Below are positions 17,640-49,538 of a stretch of 64,000 bases of DNA, piece by piece. Every line of letters starts with the position of its first letter. Within the stretch, counting starts at the first letter, position 1. The stretch lies in the NCBI GenBank assembly GCA_951406725.2, contig OX597829.1:16492001-16556000 (forward strand). The letters are read 5' to 3'. The translations under genes and the position numbers were made by a program. This DNA is from Octopus vulgaris (taxonomy: Eukaryota). The notes beneath the pieces were generated by a model. That model saw only the letters and a list, made by a program, of their open reading frames with translations. It had not been told where the DNA came from and did not search any database.

Positions 17640-20487
17640 TGCATGAAAAGCAACAAAGAACGGACCAACCCAACCAAACAACACCACCACCTGCGCCAAG
17701 AACAGAATCATCACCACCAACAACAACTAAACCAATTCCAACACCGAGAACAACAACGAAGAAGACAAGCACCAAGGATGTAGGAGAGACAATCACCACA
17801 CCAAACCCCCCAGCAACACACCCCGCACACTACAACCGCACAAACAGACCCAGATGCTTTACCCTTGCCCCCTGCTGATTCGTCAGACTTTTCATCTCAC
17901 GATGAAAGTTCGACAGAATGGCAAATAGCCACCGGGGATAAAAGAAAAAGATAAAAAGAAAACAAACAAGAAAACGCAACCAAAGCAGGGAGATAACTGA
18001 ACCCTGAAAGCTCCATACACAACCAAACAAGCACCAACACCACAAAAACACACACAATGCTATCAGCGATAGACACAAAAGACTCCAAACTAATGGAGTA
18101 CATCACAGCCCACACAAACATCTGTGAAGATGACTTCAAAACTAACAACCATCCACGCACTACACCACCCAAACACATCAAAATACTATACATCACACAG
18201 ACAGAACACCACACACTCAAAGCCCTCTTTCCAAATGCTCAATTCAGACCTGAAAATTTTGACAAAGGTGTTAGCCAAGAGGTTGGCGCTTGTCATCGAG
18301 AAACTGGTCGATAACGCATAAACGTGCGCCATGCCGGGCCGGAGCATCCATGACAACCTCCATCTAAAGCGCTACATCATAGACAGAGTAGTTAAGGAAC
18401 CTGGCATGGGTGGGGTCCTGATCAACTTGGATCAATCGAAAGCCTTCGATAGGGTAGACCATCGATACTTGGAGGCAGTCCTGAGAGCGGCTGGTTTCGG
18501 TCCCGTCTTCCGCGGCTGGATAGCTGCCTTGTACAGAGGCATCCGTTCGGTAATTCGCGTAAATGGACATCTATCGAGACCTTTCGACATTGCACGTTCG
18601 GTCCGTCAGGGATGCCCCCTCTCGGCGTTTCTATACGTATTGACTCTTGAGCCACTACTGCGGAAGCTGGCGACTCTGCGGAGCATCCCGCGAGAATTGG
18701 GATGCGGGACGAGCGTGTCTGCATACGCAGACGACGTCACCGTCATAGTGTCGAGCCACGAGCACATCGAGCTAGTCAGCGAGACACTGAAAGACTACGA
18801 AGCGGTGACAGGAGCAAAAATCAACCGGGAAAAGTCAGTGGGCTTGCGGCTCGGCACCTGGAGAAGCAAGCCCATGCCGTCCACCAGTACCTCCGTCGTG
18901 GGACGCTGGACAGACGGCCCGGTCGAGTTGCTCGGGGTCTGGTTCGGTCCGGACCTCCAAATGGAGAAGAACTGGAACGAGATAACGAGTAGGGTGGTCA
19001 CTCTCGCCCAGCAATGGGCCGAGAGGAAACTGTCCGTAAAAGGTCGGGCGGAGGTGGCGAACACGTACATCGCGTCCATCATCTACTACCGCCTGACCGT
19101 CATACCTTGTCCCGACCCTACCATCACCAAACTAGAACGCATTCTCTTCCGTTTCTTGTGGAAAGGATGCGTCCCGATGGTCAGGCGATCCATTTGCTGT
19201 CAACACCCATTAAAAGGAGGGCTGGGTATGCCATGGTTGATGATGCGCAGAAACGCGCTGAGACTGCGACATCTCCGGCTCTATGTAGACGACGGTGAAC
19301 AGGTGTGGTCGCCGTTTGTGAGGCACGCGTTCCCGCAGCTCGTCTCCATGACCGAACTGCAGTCGTGGATCAAAAACAGGCCGAGGAAGGGCGAATGGCA
19401 CCGCGAGTGTTGCGTTGCTCTCAAGCAACTCTGCCGTCCCGGGTCGACCTTGAGTGACTTCAACACAACCAAAGCATTCTATAGGGGATTAGTGGAGGCG
19501 AGGTACGACGACGATCTTGGGGCAAACCTGGGCGTCGACGAGGAATACCTGACCTGCCTATTTGAAACGACTTTCGGCCCGGGACCTATGGACAACTTCC
19601 AGAGATCCCTGGCCTGGTGGTGCTACCGAGAAGCGTTACCCGTTCGGGATAAACTCTATAGGCATGGCTCGAGAAACACGGGCCGACCTGCCCGAGATGC
19701 GGGCAGAGCGACGAAACCGCTCTGCACGCAATCGTGCAGTGTCCAACAATCTCCGACCTGTGGGCTTATGTCGAACGACTGGTGTCACGTGTGGGACGTG
19801 TCGGTTTATCAGCCGAGTCTATCGTTAATATCGTCACGCCTCCTTCCTTCAAACGGGAAGGAAGAGCTATTTTTATCATACTTGTGGCTATGGCGAAAGA
19901 ATGTATCTGGTTGACGCGCCTGAAAGGATTAGAGACAAACACTTTCCTCTCTGGTCAATCTCTCATCAACTTTTTCAAGTATCACTTGAAGAGGAAAGTG
20001 AGAGTAGAGAGGCAAGTTTTGTCTAGTGAATGCTTTAAAAAAAGATGGGTGAATGTAGCAAGGATGGCACGTATGAATGACGAAGCCACCTTGACTATGA
20101 TTCTATGAACCGCAAAAATTAATACAGAGAGTTGCTTATTTGCAAAAAAAAAAAAGAAATATAACATGTGACTTCATTGACCGAGGTTACCGTGGTCTTT
20201 TCCGTAGGCATTTCTTTCCACGGGTAAACCTCACCTGTCCTCCCCTTTACACTTCATATTGACATTTCTGTGATAACGATCCCTATTGATCAATTTTTTT
20301 TCCTTTCCCTTCCCCCCCTTTTTTAATTTTTAATTTTTTATTTTATCCTCTCCTTTTTTGTCCTCTTTTCTTTCCTTTTACGATCCCTTTTGATCGAAAA
20401 CCAAACCCCCTTTTTACCCCCAAAAGAAAAGCTCTACCTTGTAATTTGTTCTGTCTGTGTGCAGCCCTGTGTGGCTAATAAAGAAAC
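17640..20487 (+). mobile_element. Tx1-clade (L1 group) LINE, internally deleted, inserted in (TATC)n
   Basis: An ORF1-like C/A-rich remnant is fused directly to RT (LNSDLKILTKVLAKRL) with no endonuclease domain. The 3' UTR ends CTAATAAAGAAACA, and (TATC)n lies on both flanks. Confidence 0.9.
18234..20108 (+). pseudogene. Tx1-type ORF2 reverse transcriptase and C-terminal zinc knuckle (one stop, one frameshift near 19680)
   Basis: LDQSKAFDRVDH, SVRQGCPLS, AYADDVTV, KGGLGMP and CPRCGQSDETALHAIVQC. GC-rich relative to the flanks. Confidence 0.92.
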
Positions 20488-27165: not shown

Positions 27166-27556
27166 ATATATATATATATACATACAGGGTGTCCATAAAT
27201 TCCCTTTAGAATATAGAGTTTAAAACTATGGAAATTGTAAAAATGAATTATGGACAATATCTTTTATCTTTCACTTGTTGCAGTGATTAGACTCCAGCCA
27301 TGCTGGAGCACCACCTTACATTTAAAATCAAATGAATTGACCCCAATACAGCTTGGTATGTATTCTATTGGTTTCCTTTGTCAAACTGCTAAGTTACAGG
27401 AACGTAAACACACCAACAACAGTTGTCAAGTGGTGATGGGGGGAGGGTACAGAATCAGACACAGACACACACACATGCATATGCATATGTGTGTGTGTGT
27501 ATGCATACACACACACGCACACAAACACACACACACTCACACACATATATATATAT

Positions 27557-28224
27557 TAGCTCGCTTCTGCTCATAATATATATAATTTCAATCCAGAAGG
27601 TCACTGATTTTGCAACAAGCAAAAATGGTAGTTTTAAAACCTCTCTAAGAGATCAATGCAGTAGTTGCACTAAGAAGTAATGTTCAGAGCCACTTCAACC
27701 TGGCCATCCATTTGAATGGACTTCACTGTGATTTTTTAACCCCTCTAGCTGGTTAACGATGCACAGCTGCATCTGAGATATTGTGACCAGGGGAGCAAAT
27801 CCCTACCTCCTTCTAGCGACAGGACCAGCAGACCAGTCTGGTTTTAGAACTAGCTTTTTTGCTTGTTGCAAAATCAGTGACTGTATGCCGCTTGAACTAT
27901 ACATATATTGCGACCAGAAGGGTGCTACTGCCATCTCTAGCAGATGAGGTGTCCAGTACTGAAGAGAAGCAGAAATAGCCCGAAACCAGACTGATCTACT
28001 GGTCCCATCGCTTGAAGGTGGTAGGGGTTCACTCCCCTGCTTGCAATATCTCAGATGCAGCTCTGCACCGTTAACCAGTTAGAGGAGTTGTCTTTTTGGG
28101 GTTAAAAAATTGCAATAAAGTCCGTTCAAATAGATGGCCATGTTGAAGTGGCTAAAAATATTACTTGTTAGCATGAATACTGTGTTGACCACTTACAGTA
28201 ATTATAGAATGTGCATTTTTGCTT
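27557..28224. mobile_element. Hammerhead-containing ~360-nt repeat (retrozyme/Penelope-like), inverted pair, locus 1
   Basis: Minus copy 27557-27845 and plus copy 27842-28224. The end of the plus copy repeats its start (period 360). Confidence 0.75.
27938..28014 (+). ncRNA. Type I hammerhead ribozyme
   Basis: CCAGUA-CUGAAGA-stem II-GAAA-CCAGACUG-AUC-UACUGG, with a 6-bp stem I plus distal pairing. Confidence 0.75.
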
Positions 28225-28764
28225 ATATATATATATATATAGAAATCGAAATCGAATTGAACCAGCCAGGATCCCTGGTCTGGTGGTACGTAAAAAACAC
28301 TATCCGACTCGTGGCCGATGCCAGCACCGCCTCGACTGGCTTCCGTGCCGGTGGCACATAAAATACACCAATCCAACCGTGGCTGTTGCCAGCCTCGCCT
28401 GGCACCTGTGCAGGTGGCACGTAAAAAGCACCCACTACACTCACGGAGTGGTTGGCGTTGGGAAGGGCATCCAGCTGTAGAAACATTGCCAGATAAGACT
28501 GGAGCCTGGTGCAGCCTTCTGGCTTCCCAGATCCCCGGTCGAACCGTCCAACCCATGCTAGCATGGAGAACGGACGTTAAACGATGATGATGATAAGGGG
28601 CTTCTTTCAGTTTCCATCTACCAAATCAAAATTCCACTCACAAGGCTTTTGTTTGCCCAAGGCTAGTGTAGAAGATACTTGCCTAAGGTGGCACACAGTA
28701 GGACTGAATCCAGAACCATGTGGTTGGGAAGCAAGCCTCTTAACACACAGATATGCCCTCTATA

Positions 28765-28800
<36 letters not shown>

Positions 28801-29040
28801 GCCAGCAGTTGTCCTGTACCAAGGAAAGGAAATTACCCAGAAACCATTGGTCTACAGGTACCGTTACAGCTAGAAAGAAAGCAGTAGACTCCCTTGCTCA
28901 CAGAATATGGACTCAGATCATGTGTCGGTAGCCAGCTGGAAAAAAAGTTTTCCTGGGGCTAAAAAGTAATACCATCATCCTATGTGGAACTGCCACATTG
29001 CATTGGCAAATATATATTATATATATATATATATATATAT

Positions 29041-30718: not shown

Positions 30719-30939
30719 TATATTTTGAGTATTGTTATCACTAGCGATATCAAGATATAACTTTGTATTTTGTATTTTATGTGTAGATGTATATATATAG
30801 ATGTACATGTAATATGTACACATATATATATACACATATATACATGCATAATATATCTACCCATACACACATACACACACACACACACACACACATACAT
30901 AGGGGCAGGTGTGGCTGTGTGGTAACAAACTACGTTCAA

Positions 30940-31585
30940 AGATACTGTACTTGATATGGGCAGTAGTGCCTTGCCGGTCTATGGCCTACCTTCAACAAAC
31001 CGGGAAGGCAGAAACACTCTGTCTTCACATTTGCTGCGTGAGACATATTTTAATGTTGACGAGCTTGCCGAGTACATAGCCGACAATGAGCCAAAGCTCC
31101 TTCCAGAACAGAAGTTCGCTTACAACTCCGTTGTTAATTCAGTCCGGGCCAAAGCTGGGGGAATTTTTTTCCTGGATGCTCCTGGGGGCACTGGGAAAAC
31201 TTTTGTCAACAAATTAATATTGGCTGAGATTAGGCGAACACAAGGCATTGCCCCAGCTGTGACATCATCTGGAATTGCGGCTACTTTGTTGCCAGGCGGC
31301 AGGACAGCTCAATCCACTTTCAAGCTCCCGCTTGACTTAGCGAAGACTGAGATACCAACTTGCAACATCAGTAACAGCTCCGATCAGGCAGAAGTCTTCA
31401 GACGATGCAAGCTTATCGTTTGGGATGAATGCACGATGGCCCACAGAGGTGCTCTTGAGGCACTAGATAGATCTCTCAGAGACATCAAACACTCTTCAGC
31501 TCCCATGGGAGGCATACCACTTCTTCTTTCAGGGGACTTCCGACAAACACTTCCCGTTATTCCCAAAGGGACTAGAGCTGATGCA
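30940..31585 (+). pseudogene. Helitron PIF1-like SF1 helicase fragment
   Basis: FFLDAPGGTGKTF (motif I), SSGIAATLLPGGRTAQSTFKLP, IVWDECTM (motif II) and SGDFRQTLPV (motif III), then truncated. Confidence 0.93.
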
Positions 31586-31674
31586 TTAAGTGCAGAAATA
31601 GGCCTGGGTATAGATATATATATATATATACACACACACACATATATATGTGTGTGTATGTATATACATATATA

Positions 31675-32507
31675 CAGGGTGCGTTATGTAAATTGTCACC
31701 GTTTTATAGTTTTAATTTCATGTGTGTGCACTGATTGTTTTGATTTTGTCAACTACACAGTAGTCTTCCAAGAGTTTGGAAATGACATGCTGTACTGCTT
31801 GGTTTTCACACCAGAAGCTCCAATACAAACAGATGGTGAACGCACAGAACAACTGTTGGCTTGCTGTGTCCCCAAAACATGTACCGAGAGTGATAAAAAT
31901 CAAACATCCAGTCAACATCATGCTATTTGGAGTGATCACTAGTGGTGGTGACGTTATGCTACCATTCACCTTCCCACACACCCTCAGACTCAATACAGAG
32001 GCCTACATCAAGTGCCTGGAGGAGGTAGTGCTGCCCTGGGTTAAGAAGGTGGCTGCTGGAAGATCCTGTATCTGGCAACGAGACTCTGCACCATGCCACA
32101 CAAACAGACAAAGCCAGTCATGTCTATCAGACAATTTTTGTGATCACATCACCCCTAACATCAGGCCATCTAACTCCCCAGACTGCAACCACCTTGATTG
32201 TTATGTGTAGGGTGCAGTTGAGTGAGAGACTAACAAAATTCCTTGTAACACCAAAGATGAACTGAAGGCAAGGATTATGGCAGCATTCACCATCTTAAAC
32301 AAGAAGACCATTCAGAAGAGTTGCAAGAGATTCTGAAGTTGTCTGGAGGCCATGGTTGAAGCCAATGGCGATTTTATTGAATAAATTTACTCTTCAGTAT
32401 TTCAAGATATTTTCATGTAATTTTGGTAAATATATCTATTAAAATGATATATCAGTGTTATTTTGATTTTTGCGTAAATTTGACAACAATATATTCACGG
32501 CATCCTG
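31675..32507 (+). mobile_element. maT (DD37D) internal-deletion derivative
   Basis: TA-CAGGGTGC...GCATCCTG-TA ends. WQRDSAPCH to DCNHLD gives 37 residues between the catalytic Asp residues. Confidence 0.88.
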
Positions 32508-36341: not shown

Positions 36342-37425
36342 TTATCTTCAAAATAAATTGAAATAAAGACAGCGTAATTTCAAGAGAAATATGGTAACAA
36401 AAGGGTTAAAGTGATCTAAAATCGAAACCTTTCATCAAAATTTTTGGGTTAATTATATCAGCTTAATAAGGACAGGGTTATTTCACTAAATTCTTCGATA
36501 TCGTCAAAATTAATTGAAACAAAGTGTAATTTCAAGAGATATATGGTAACAAAAGGGTTAAAGTGATCTAAAATCGAAACCTTTCATCAAAATTTTTGGG
36601 TTAATTATATCAGCTTAATAAGGACAGGGTTATTTCACTAAATTCTTCGATATCGTCAAAATTAATTGAAACAAAGTGTAATTTCAAGAGATATATGGTA
36701 ACAAAAGGGTTAAAGTGATCTAAAATCGAAACCTTTCATCAAAATTTTTGGGTTAATTATATCAGCTTAATAAGGACAGGGTTATTTCACTAAATTCTTC
36801 GATATCGTCAAAATTAATTGAAACAAAGTGTAATTTCAAGAGATATATGGTAACAAAAGGGTTAAAGAGATCTAAAATCGAAACCTTTCATCAAAATTTT
36901 TGGGTTAATTATATCAGCTTAATAAGGACAGGGTTATTTCACTAAATTCTTCGATAACGTCAAAATTAATTGAAACAAAGTGTAATTTCAAGAGATATAT
37001 GGTAACAAAAGGGTTAAAGTGATCTAAAATCGAAACCTTTCATCAAAATTTTTGGGTTAATTATATCAGCTTAATAAGGACAGGGTTATTTCACTAAATT
37101 CTTCGATATCGTCAAAATTAATTGAAACAAAGTGTAATTTCAAGAGATATATGGTAACAAAAGGGTTAAAGTGATCTAAAATCGAAACCTTTCATCAAAA
37201 TTTTTGGGTTAATTATATCAGCTTAATAAGGACAGGGTTATTTCACTAAATTCTTCGTTATCTTCAAAATTAATTGAAACAAAGTGTAATTTCAAGAGAA
37301 ATATGGTAACAAAAGGGTTAAAGTGATCTAAAATTAAAACTTTCTATCAAAATTTTATGTTATATTCAAAAGACCATCTTAATAATAATGATATCATACT
37401 AAATTCTTCACTATATTCAAAAGCC
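36342..37425 (+). repeat. 152-bp tandem repeat, ~7 units
   Basis: AAAGTGTAAT recurs at 36521, 36673, 36825, 36977, 37129 and 37281. Degenerate units flank the array. Confidence 0.97.
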
Positions 37426-43185: not shown

Positions 43186-44486
43186 CGAGGGGCGTTCAAT
43201 AAGTAATGCCCCTGACCCACTTCCCATAGCAGTAGAGCAACGAAACTTGGCACAGTTATTAGTCTTTTTCTACATAAGAAGCACCTAGAGTTACACATTT
43301 CTCCCATCATTTGATGCAGCTCTGGAGACCATTTTTGTAGAAGACCCCAGCTTGGTCCTCCAACCACGATGTGACTTCAGAAATCAAGGCTGCATCATCT
43401 GGGAAACGCTTTCCTTTCAAAAACAACTTCATGGCTGTGAAGAGGTGAAAATCAGAGGGTGCAAGGTCAGGAGAGTAGGGGGGATGGGGGAGGATTTCAT
43501 AGCCGCACGCCTGTGCTTCTGATCTGGCGACACGCGAGTTGTGGACCGGAGCGTTATCCTGCAGGAGGAGGATGCCTTTGCTGATCTTGCCCCGCCTCTT
43601 GATTTTGATAGCTTCTCTTAATTTCCTCAAAAGTGAAGCATAATAGGCTTCTGTAATTGTGGTACCCTTTGCCAAGAAATCTGTCATCACTACTCCATCC
43701 TGGTCCCAGAAGTTGTGAGTATGACCTTGCCAGCGAAGGGCTGCACCCTTGCCTTCTTTGGAGGAGGTGAGTCACGGTGCTTCCACTGCATTGACTGGTC
43801 TCTGGTCTCTGGTCTCTGGATCATAGTGATGGACCCAGGTTTCATCCTGTGTAATCAGTCCTTTGAAAAATTTTGACTCATTTTCCTGGCACCTCTCCAA
43901 ATTCATCCTTTAGCACTCGACGCGTTCATGCTTCTGGAAAGGTGTGAGCAGCCTGGGAATCCATCTGGCAGACACCTTTTGCATATGCAAATGGTCATGA
44001 ATGATAGTTTCCACAGACCCGGTACTAATCTTGACCTCAGGGGCTATTTGGCAAATAGTTATGCGTCGATCTTCCAAAATGGCAGCCTCAAATTGATGGA
44101 CAGATGCCTCATCAATGGCAGAAGGTGGGGGGCACCAGATCTGGGAGCTGTTTCCACAGAGTTCGGACCATGTTTGAATTCATGATGCCAGCGTTTTACA
44201 AGATCATATGATGGGGCATCATCATCATAAGTTACTTTCATTTCATCAAAAGTCTCCCGTGGTGTGCGTCCTTTCAAACACAAAAACCGGATCACTGCTC
44301 GACACTCAACAGGCTCCATTTCACACTTGACTCGGTTCAAACACCTGTAAATCAGAAATCACAATTAATTCATAGCTGTAATTTGCCACTTACTCTATAG
44401 AGATATAAATGATTGCACATACAAAATTTCAGCAAGATCAAACAACTGCAAGTGGGTCAGAGACATTACTTATTGAACGTCCCTCA
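43186..44486 (-). mobile_element. Full-length mariner element (irritans-like), ~1.3 kb
   Basis: TIRs CGAGGGGCGTTCAATAAGTAATG / CATTACTTATTGAACGTCCCTCA, with TA flanks. Confidence 0.95.
43259..44340 (-). pseudogene. mariner DD34D transposase, frameshifted
   Basis: RAVIRFLCLKG HTH, ITQDETWVHHYD, LLQDNAPVH, HPPYSPDLAPSDFHLF. Confidence 0.93.
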
Positions 44487-48821: not shown

Positions 48822-49380
48822 AAGCAAAAATGCTAGTTTTAAAACCTCTCTAAGAGATCAATGCAGCAGTTGCACTAAGAAGTTATGTTCAGAGCCACTT
48901 CAACATGGCTATCTGTTTGAATAGACTTCACTGTGAAGCAACATCTCCTCTAGTGAGTTAACAATGCACTGTCCATTCAAACGGAGAGCCATGTAGAAGT
49001 GGCCACGAACATTACTTGTTAGTACAAATACTGCATTGATTTCTCACAAATATTATAGAACTGGCATTTTTGTTTGTTGCAAAACCAGTGACTGTATGTC
49101 ACTAGAAATTATATACATTGTGAGCAGAAGCGAGCTACTGACATCTCTAGCAGACAAGATGTCCAGTACTGAAGACAGGCAGAAGCAGCCCGAAAACAGG
49201 CTGGTCTACTGGTCCTCTTGCTAAAATGTAATAGTGGTTCATTCCCCTGCTCACAATATATTGGAGGCTGTGTGTATTGTTAACCAGCTAGAAGAGATGT
49301 CGTCTTTGGGTTAAAAAATCGTAGTGTAGTTTGTTCGAACAGCCAGCCATGTTGAAGGGCTATGAACATTACTTGCTTGT
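48822..49380. mobile_element. Hammerhead-containing ~360-nt repeat, inverted pair, locus 2
   Basis: Minus partial copy 48822-48969. Plus copy 48970-49380 has terminal redundancy (GCCATGT at 48988 and 49346, period 358). Confidence 0.75.
49148..49223 (+). ncRNA. Type I hammerhead ribozyme
   Basis: CCAGUA-CUGAAGA-CAGGCAGAAGCAGCCC-GAAA-ACAGGCUG-GUC-UACUGG. Confidence 0.75.
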
Positions 49381-49538
49381 ATGTATATATATATTTATAG
49401 AAATATATATGTCTATACATGTATGTATACATGTCTATCTATCTGTCTATCTATCTGCCTGTCTGTCTCTCTCTGTCTCTCTTTCTCTCTCTCTCTCTAT
49501 CTTCTATCTATCTATCTATCTATCTATCTCTCTCTCTC

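Follow-up and report, generated by a model that had tools for sequence, protein, structure and literature searches.

Non-LTR retrozymes of 170-400 nt with circular RNA have been described in coral, mussel and axolotl by Cervera and de la Pena (2020; PMC7229834), who proposed Penelope elements as the helpers of these retrozymes; cephalopods are not named in the available portion of the main text of that paper. Vertebrate retrozymes are presented as non-autonomous Penelope derivatives by Li, Clavereau and Pollet (bioRxiv 10.64898/2026.07.22.740005), whose sample, according to the accessible sections of the preprint, consists of 31 vertebrates, three insects and one coral, with no mollusc. As far as the available text of these two studies goes, the copying of animal retrozymes into genomes is proposed and not shown; the octopus families described here leave Penelope-type footprints that can be counted. 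Penelope-like elements themselves typically show an inverted arm and a tail on one side, as stated in the accessible part of Craig et al. (2021; PMC8557442). For cephalopods, the giant squid genome paper, in the part available, counts 235 matches to Hammerhead_1 without analysis, the available main text on the repeat annotation of Octopus vulgaris mentions no hammerhead, ribozyme or retrozyme, and a search of the published literature found no paper on a cephalopod retrozyme.

The octopus family is a further case of the class already established in corals, mussels and salamanders, with cleavage and circles as predicted properties. The nearest likeness in the sections of PMC7229834 that were available is to the Mytilus repeats of 350-390 bp, which also have a non-coding unit of ~360 nt and a type I hammerhead. 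Copies that are dispersed or arranged in tandem, a self-paired fold and co-existing Penelope-like elements are common to the retrozymes of that paper and to the octopus family. Cleavage and circles were shown for those retrozymes, whereas they are predicted for the octopus family; the ends of insertions are analysed here but not in the available text of PMC7229834. With the preprint of Li et al., to judge from its accessible sections, the octopus family shares the class and the proposed helper, but the link to Penelope is made there by co-occurrence and homology to pseudo-LTRs (pLTRs) and here by the anatomy of insertions and by fused junctions.

The locus occupies positions 27557-28224 of a microsatellite-rich stretch of 64,000 nt (the window) in an Octopus vulgaris assembly of 2.8 Gb and 227 contigs. 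In the reading that we hold to be quite probable, a non-LTR retrozyme, likely copied into (AT)n by the RT and GIY-YIG of a Penelope element acting in trans, has left a two-arm insertion here that is now decayed (Table 1). The right arm spans family positions 357 to 20 and stops at the "tail" end point of the family. The left arm, which has lost 14 nt by deletion, covers 304 unit positions, is 75-80% identical to the right arm, and has an outer end (27557) that coincides with neither of the usual end points, lying 62 nt beyond the usual point. Because both outer ends of the insertion are (AT)n, a target-site duplication is unreadable. The 359-nt unit is non-coding, and the sole listed frame of at least 120 aa that touches the locus (28161-28625, - strand) lies mostly outside it. 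The first-pass annotation had noticed that TAGAA at 27845 recurs at 28205, and this stands, as part of a terminal repeat of ~24 nt (18/24 identical), but the period of the family is 359 nt and not the 360 nt then given. The inverted upstream copy with GUC that had been reported is real as well (GUC at 27831-27833), but this arm begins inside GAAA, after the CUGANGA core, which is absent; it is therefore no ribozyme, and the only complete hammerhead of the locus is that of the right arm.

Table 1. Features of the window and of fused or two-arm loci elsewhere in the assembly (positions without a prefix are those of the window).
Feature	Position	Strand	Remarks
Left (AT)n target	27545-27556		read from sequence
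Left arm	27557-27844	-	family positions 138 to 82; 84% to family majority; back to back with right arm
Right arm	27842-28224	+	a complete 359-nt unit and a further 24 nt; 383 nt at 87% to family majority
Long rod extending stem I	27905-28049	+	~47 pairs with bulges; conserved in family, partly broken here
Type I hammerhead motif	27953-28002	+	predicted cut after 27996
58-nt "tail"	28167-28224	+	between the two fixed 3' end points of the family, family positions ~321 and 20
Right (AT)n target	28225-28241		read from sequence
Short distant relative of the unit	28807-29009	+	between two (AT)n runs; profile match E 7e-16
Second two-arm insertion of the family in the window	48822-49387		one arm at tail end, other near position 328
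Two-arm array of young sister family	L082:2097-4768 (G000:C1:20002097-20004768)		359-nt units 98-99% alike
Old-family fragment fused to 5'-truncated Penelope-like element	L182:3033-5450 (G000:C2:61130032-61132449)		
Young unit fused head to head to 5'-truncated young Penelope-like element	L228:6306-8133, L226, L227, L229		

The type I hammerhead claimed in the first-pass annotation is borne out by the letters of the right arm, in which stem I (CCAGUA, 27953-27958; UACUGG, 27997-28002) has 6/6 pairs and the core segments CUGAAGA (27959-27965) and GAAA (27982-27985) are intact, and by GUC as the cleavage triplet of the family. The triplet of this copy is AUC (27994-27996), a G-to-A change that breaks the pair adjoining the core, and stems II and III keep 3/4 and 2/3 pairs, respectively. 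Because its one hammerhead is damaged, the copy is not expected to release a monomer. The core and three stems are present in the family, with a bulge required in stem II of the window subfamily, at a score below the Rfam cut-off: the Rfam check that had been recommended does not detect the motif, no match in the 64 kb of the window reaches the gathering score, the best score for the window copy is 13.4 bits (Hammerhead_HH9, cut-off 52, E 0.92), and a better-kept copy and the young sister family also gave only weak hammerhead matches. Folded as a circle, the family majority reaches -150.5 kcal/mol (z -8.7 versus 60 shuffles) with 69% of positions paired; the window copy has z -0.8, and the folds of single copies are unremarkable. 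In an alignment of 42 copies (22 of the window subfamily and 20 of a sister subfamily, chosen from sampled loci, with the structure drawn from the same sequences), 87.5% of the structure cells are paired, compared to 34-45% in slid controls, and this value was reached by 0/500 shuffles. One pair of stem I is G-C in 20 of these copies and C-G in 14, and one pair of stem II is G-C in 23 and A-U in 11; as these swaps coincide with the division into subfamilies, each of them may have happened just once.

The motif is spanned by 58 copies, of which 24 have preserved the core and 10 the core together with the stems, and core positions are conserved at 93% versus 89% for their neighbours, a slight excess that fits neutral decay after insertion, as expected. 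So few complete motifs, and Rfam scores so far below the cut-off, are what might be seen if the unit were a satellite or SINE-like repeat whose likeness to a hammerhead was accidental, or whose hammerhead was dead long before it spread. This alternative is highly improbable in view of the related young family, which has the textbook, canonical minimal type I hammerhead in 7/7 covering units at one locus (none in a reversed control) and aligns to the window family with 65% identity over 116 nt, above all 100 shuffles, and in view of the stems, which are preserved through substitutions.

A genome-wide search with the unit, also recommended in the first-pass annotation, finds a dispersed family, with 69 matches among 40 scored of 1650 first-look candidates (which is not a copy number); the best other copies among those scored are 84-85% identical to the window unit. 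In 40 evenly spaced 10-kb stretches, a close relative was found in one and any relative in six, and a reversed-sequence control gave no profile match. Extrapolation from these 40 stretches puts all relatives together at ~40,000 loci (Poisson range 15,000-90,000) and the close group at thousands of loci, the latter with a very wide range as it derives from 1/40 stretches. The family is old because its pieces of at least 200 nt (n=67) have a median identity of 88% and a maximum of 93% to the majority; neither this age nor the decay of the window copy had been recognised earlier. The copies are mostly 1-2.5 units long. The window locus is a decayed and probably dead member of this old, dispersed hammerhead repeat, a fossil that adds little on its own. 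The family is present in 4/4 runs from four other organisms, with 733-1322 contigs at 85% likeness. In two of these organisms (B and C), contigs of 74-100 nt differ at 0-1 positions from the window copy itself and are far closer to it than any other copy in the source genome, which suggests that the window insertion predates their split; for organism E, no near-identical contig was found among the matches listed. An older sister subfamily (L263-L287), 70-78% identical to the family majority, has a two-pair stem III and an end point also near 321, and further related subfamilies are represented by L108:8400-9750, L115, L116, L120 and L066:5613-5806; the tandem units of L108 are near-identical, with the first core segment altered.

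The 3' ends of 97 pieces from 65 loci cluster at two points 58 nt apart (35 + 23 = 58/97; 7.5% expected) when counted in end windows chosen after inspection of the data, and with the windows fixed, the clustering was replicated in 42 new loci (17 + 23 = 40/65 pieces, p 1e-28). The 5' starts are scattered round the circular unit map, with a modest excess at positions 14-26 (11/97) that is partly derived from the query. The 107 loci contain 48 divergent pairs and one convergent pair, and 28 of the 30 divergent pairs in which both ends could be classified have one end of each kind. Runs of (AT)3 or longer are touched by 41/97 of the 3' ends, versus 12/97 of the 5' starts and a background of 6%. 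The two 3' ends, scattered 5' starts, divergent arms and AT targets are Penelope-type footprints and constitute good genomic evidence; the inverted 5' arm, the tail on one side, the 5' truncation and the microsatellite target all belong to the Penelope type of insertion. Autonomous Penelope-like elements of two families in the source genome likewise have inverted arms and a one-sided tail, and Pfam identifies RT and GIY-YIG in two resident Penelope families. From the available sections of Craig et al. (PMC8557442), Penelope-like elements share with the octopus family 5' truncation, partial tandems, an inverted 5' copy, a one-sided tail, a bias towards microsatellites and a hammerhead near the 3' end; they differ in that their tail is 30-40 nt, compared to 58 nt in the octopus family, and in that their pLTR leads into a gene, whereas the octopus unit has no ORF and repeats on itself.

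There is good genomic evidence for Penelope-type mobilisation of the octopus 359-nt family in trans, a process of which cleavage and circles are predicted parts. Tandem source copies would be transcribed and the transcript cut by the hammerhead ribozyme, and RNA of one or several units would be closed into circles. The borrowed Penelope enzyme may then nick both strands of the target and prime at two set points of the RNA that lie 58 nt from each other; reverse transcription would proceed backwards through the cut-and-join site to a random stop, and the joining of two cDNAs head to head would produce the back-to-back arms.

The cleavage site is read through in 64/97 pieces and is the end of 0/97 (stops within 10 nt of it: 3/17), and 28/97 pieces are longer than one unit. 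A cut linear monomer is therefore an unlikely template, and a circle or an uncut multimer fits; read-through alone cannot tell circles from uncut linear multimers. It is conceivable, if rather doubtful, that the same Penelope helper copied the same element from the multi-unit transcripts of a few tandem masters, linear and uncut, with no need of circles. Tandem arrays that could serve as masters exist, of up to 903 nt in the old family (the window locus, with its one complete motif, is not tandem) and of 5.6 units in the young sister family, but an active hammerhead would cut such a transcript, yet the 5' starts are not piled at the cut site, and the strong self-pairing of the majority sequence as a circle also speaks against a linear template. 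The units of a locus usually have locus-specific variants in common, as would follow from repeated copying of one circle but also from a homogeneous master. Across 14 young loci, 21 variants occur in every covering unit of their locus, 43 are confined to a single unit and 32 are partial. In one young array (L158:797-2592), three markers follow one another in the exact order a,b,c,a,b, as checked by alignment. This order needs a template of three units, for which a three-unit circle fits, or a later rearrangement; a linear template with more than one kind of unit would also account for it. At least one array is therefore not fully explained by copying round one monomer circle. A two-unit pattern in array C11 proved to be an alignment artefact, as its four units are alike and the array is uniform.

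The first-pass annotation had taken the unit for a non-LTR retrozyme while noting that a unit always flanking a Penelope ORF would be an ordinary pLTR. None of the 107 loci, as judged with probes from four Penelope families, lies directly 3' of a same-strand RT + GIY-YIG ORF; the unit is therefore a non-LTR retrozyme and not an ordinary pLTR, and the reading holds genomically: the 359-nt unit does not code, it carries a type I hammerhead, its copies are dispersed and also occur in tandem, and their ends are of the Penelope type. It is improbable, although slightly less so than an accidental hammerhead, that the unit is the ordinary pLTR of an old, unsampled autonomous Penelope family, with the copies being short 5'-truncated insertions. 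The layout (a hammerhead, 130-180 nt, a fixed end and a tail) is pLTR-like, homology of Xenopus retrozymes to pLTRs is reported in the accessible part of the 2026 preprint (10.64898/2026.07.22.740005), and the sampling, with four Penelope families as probes and a GIY-YIG search in which 150 of 6136 candidates were scored, leaves some room for such a family; but every copy longer than one unit wraps into another unit and not into a gene, and among 40 free 5' flanks, only one pair is alike in sequence next to the junction, and these two meet the unit at different positions. Fragments of Penelope ORFs occur near 5/107 loci, not clearly above background, and none of the five has the upstream, same-strand position expected of a pLTR host; the single upstream-downstream case carries its own, different 3' end. 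The Penelope match at L128 is just a terminal piece, and the nearby fragments at L024, L030, L299 and L315 are separated from the repeat by spacer or microsatellite sequence or face the other way. Alignment of the unit to three resident Penelope terminal regions gave nothing above shuffles, and profile and local alignment searches for a homology partner in Penelope loci and the three terminal regions gave nothing above chance; weak profile matches near the Penelope loci L060, L066 and L073 were taken as neighbouring relatives. The octopus unit gave no sign of homology to the pLTRs of these three families, unlike the retrozymes in the available sections of the preprint.

The young sister family, which was found by random sampling, also has a 359-nt unit, in 5.6 tandem copies at 98%, and its best copies are 94-99% identical. 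Its ends are 47 nt apart, and target duplications of 7-11 nt were read by eye at three loci. The hammerhead in the young two-arm array of Table 1 is of the canonical minimal type I form with a palindromic four-base loop.

The new observation is that one copy of the old family and one of the young family each directly adjoin a truncated Penelope element in a fused insertion, the two elements being of different types. The old-family junction (L182) has no spacer, and each outer end runs into (AT)n; neither the remainder of the unit nor the missing 5' part of the Penelope element is found nearby. This element shares ~89-90% identity with the young copies of its type, which gives it an age similar to that of the old family. 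Both arms are of the tail type, against the rule of one end of each kind, so a deletion that joined two separate insertions is possible; 0/29 young loci of this Penelope type have either repeat within 1.5 kb. The young fused locus, present three times by segmental duplication, has one tail end and one non-tail end, in keeping with the rule, and a second young-family locus with the same junction point may not be independent. The Penelope type fused to the young family differs from that of L182 and is very young, with 150 scored copies at 98-100% and frames of up to 1312 aa. Pfam names no domain in the 464-aa part of it that was tested; it is presumably a Penelope, a class that we assign by its tblastn likeness to the other two families and by its motifs. 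The young family was considered as the pLTR of a Penelope element and rejected, the three supporting loci being duplicates of one, with the ORF on the opposite strand.

A tentative view, which we think possible but would not favour, is that octopus-like genomes have carried successive waves of one 359-nt ribozyme RNA lineage, a free parasite not derived from the terminal repeats of its helpers. Penelope enzymes of unrelated types would prime on this RNA, copy it as monomer or multimer circles and sometimes change, within a single insertion, between the parasite RNA and the mRNA of the helper itself; if this were true, the fused junctions, with one Penelope type in the old family and another in the young family, would physically record which helper was used and that it changed. 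The young sister family, with intact ribozymes, and the young Penelope family, with long open frames, make a concrete pair that can be tested.

A very young and abundant Penelope-like family is seen at L259:2263-6198, where the open frame is 1312 aa long, with no Pfam domain named in the part examined; its terminal repeat contains a variant hammerhead core, and its tail measures ~55 nt. Another young Penelope-like family (L062:2245-4587) has many intact 781-aa frames with a second frame upstream. Elsewhere in the window, a 152-nt unit is repeated 6.5 times, with a match of 98%, at positions 36374-37356, and three frames are candidates, by their motifs, for a LINE reverse transcriptase (18322-20108), a Helitron-type helicase (30926-31942) and a mariner-type transposase (43307-43771).
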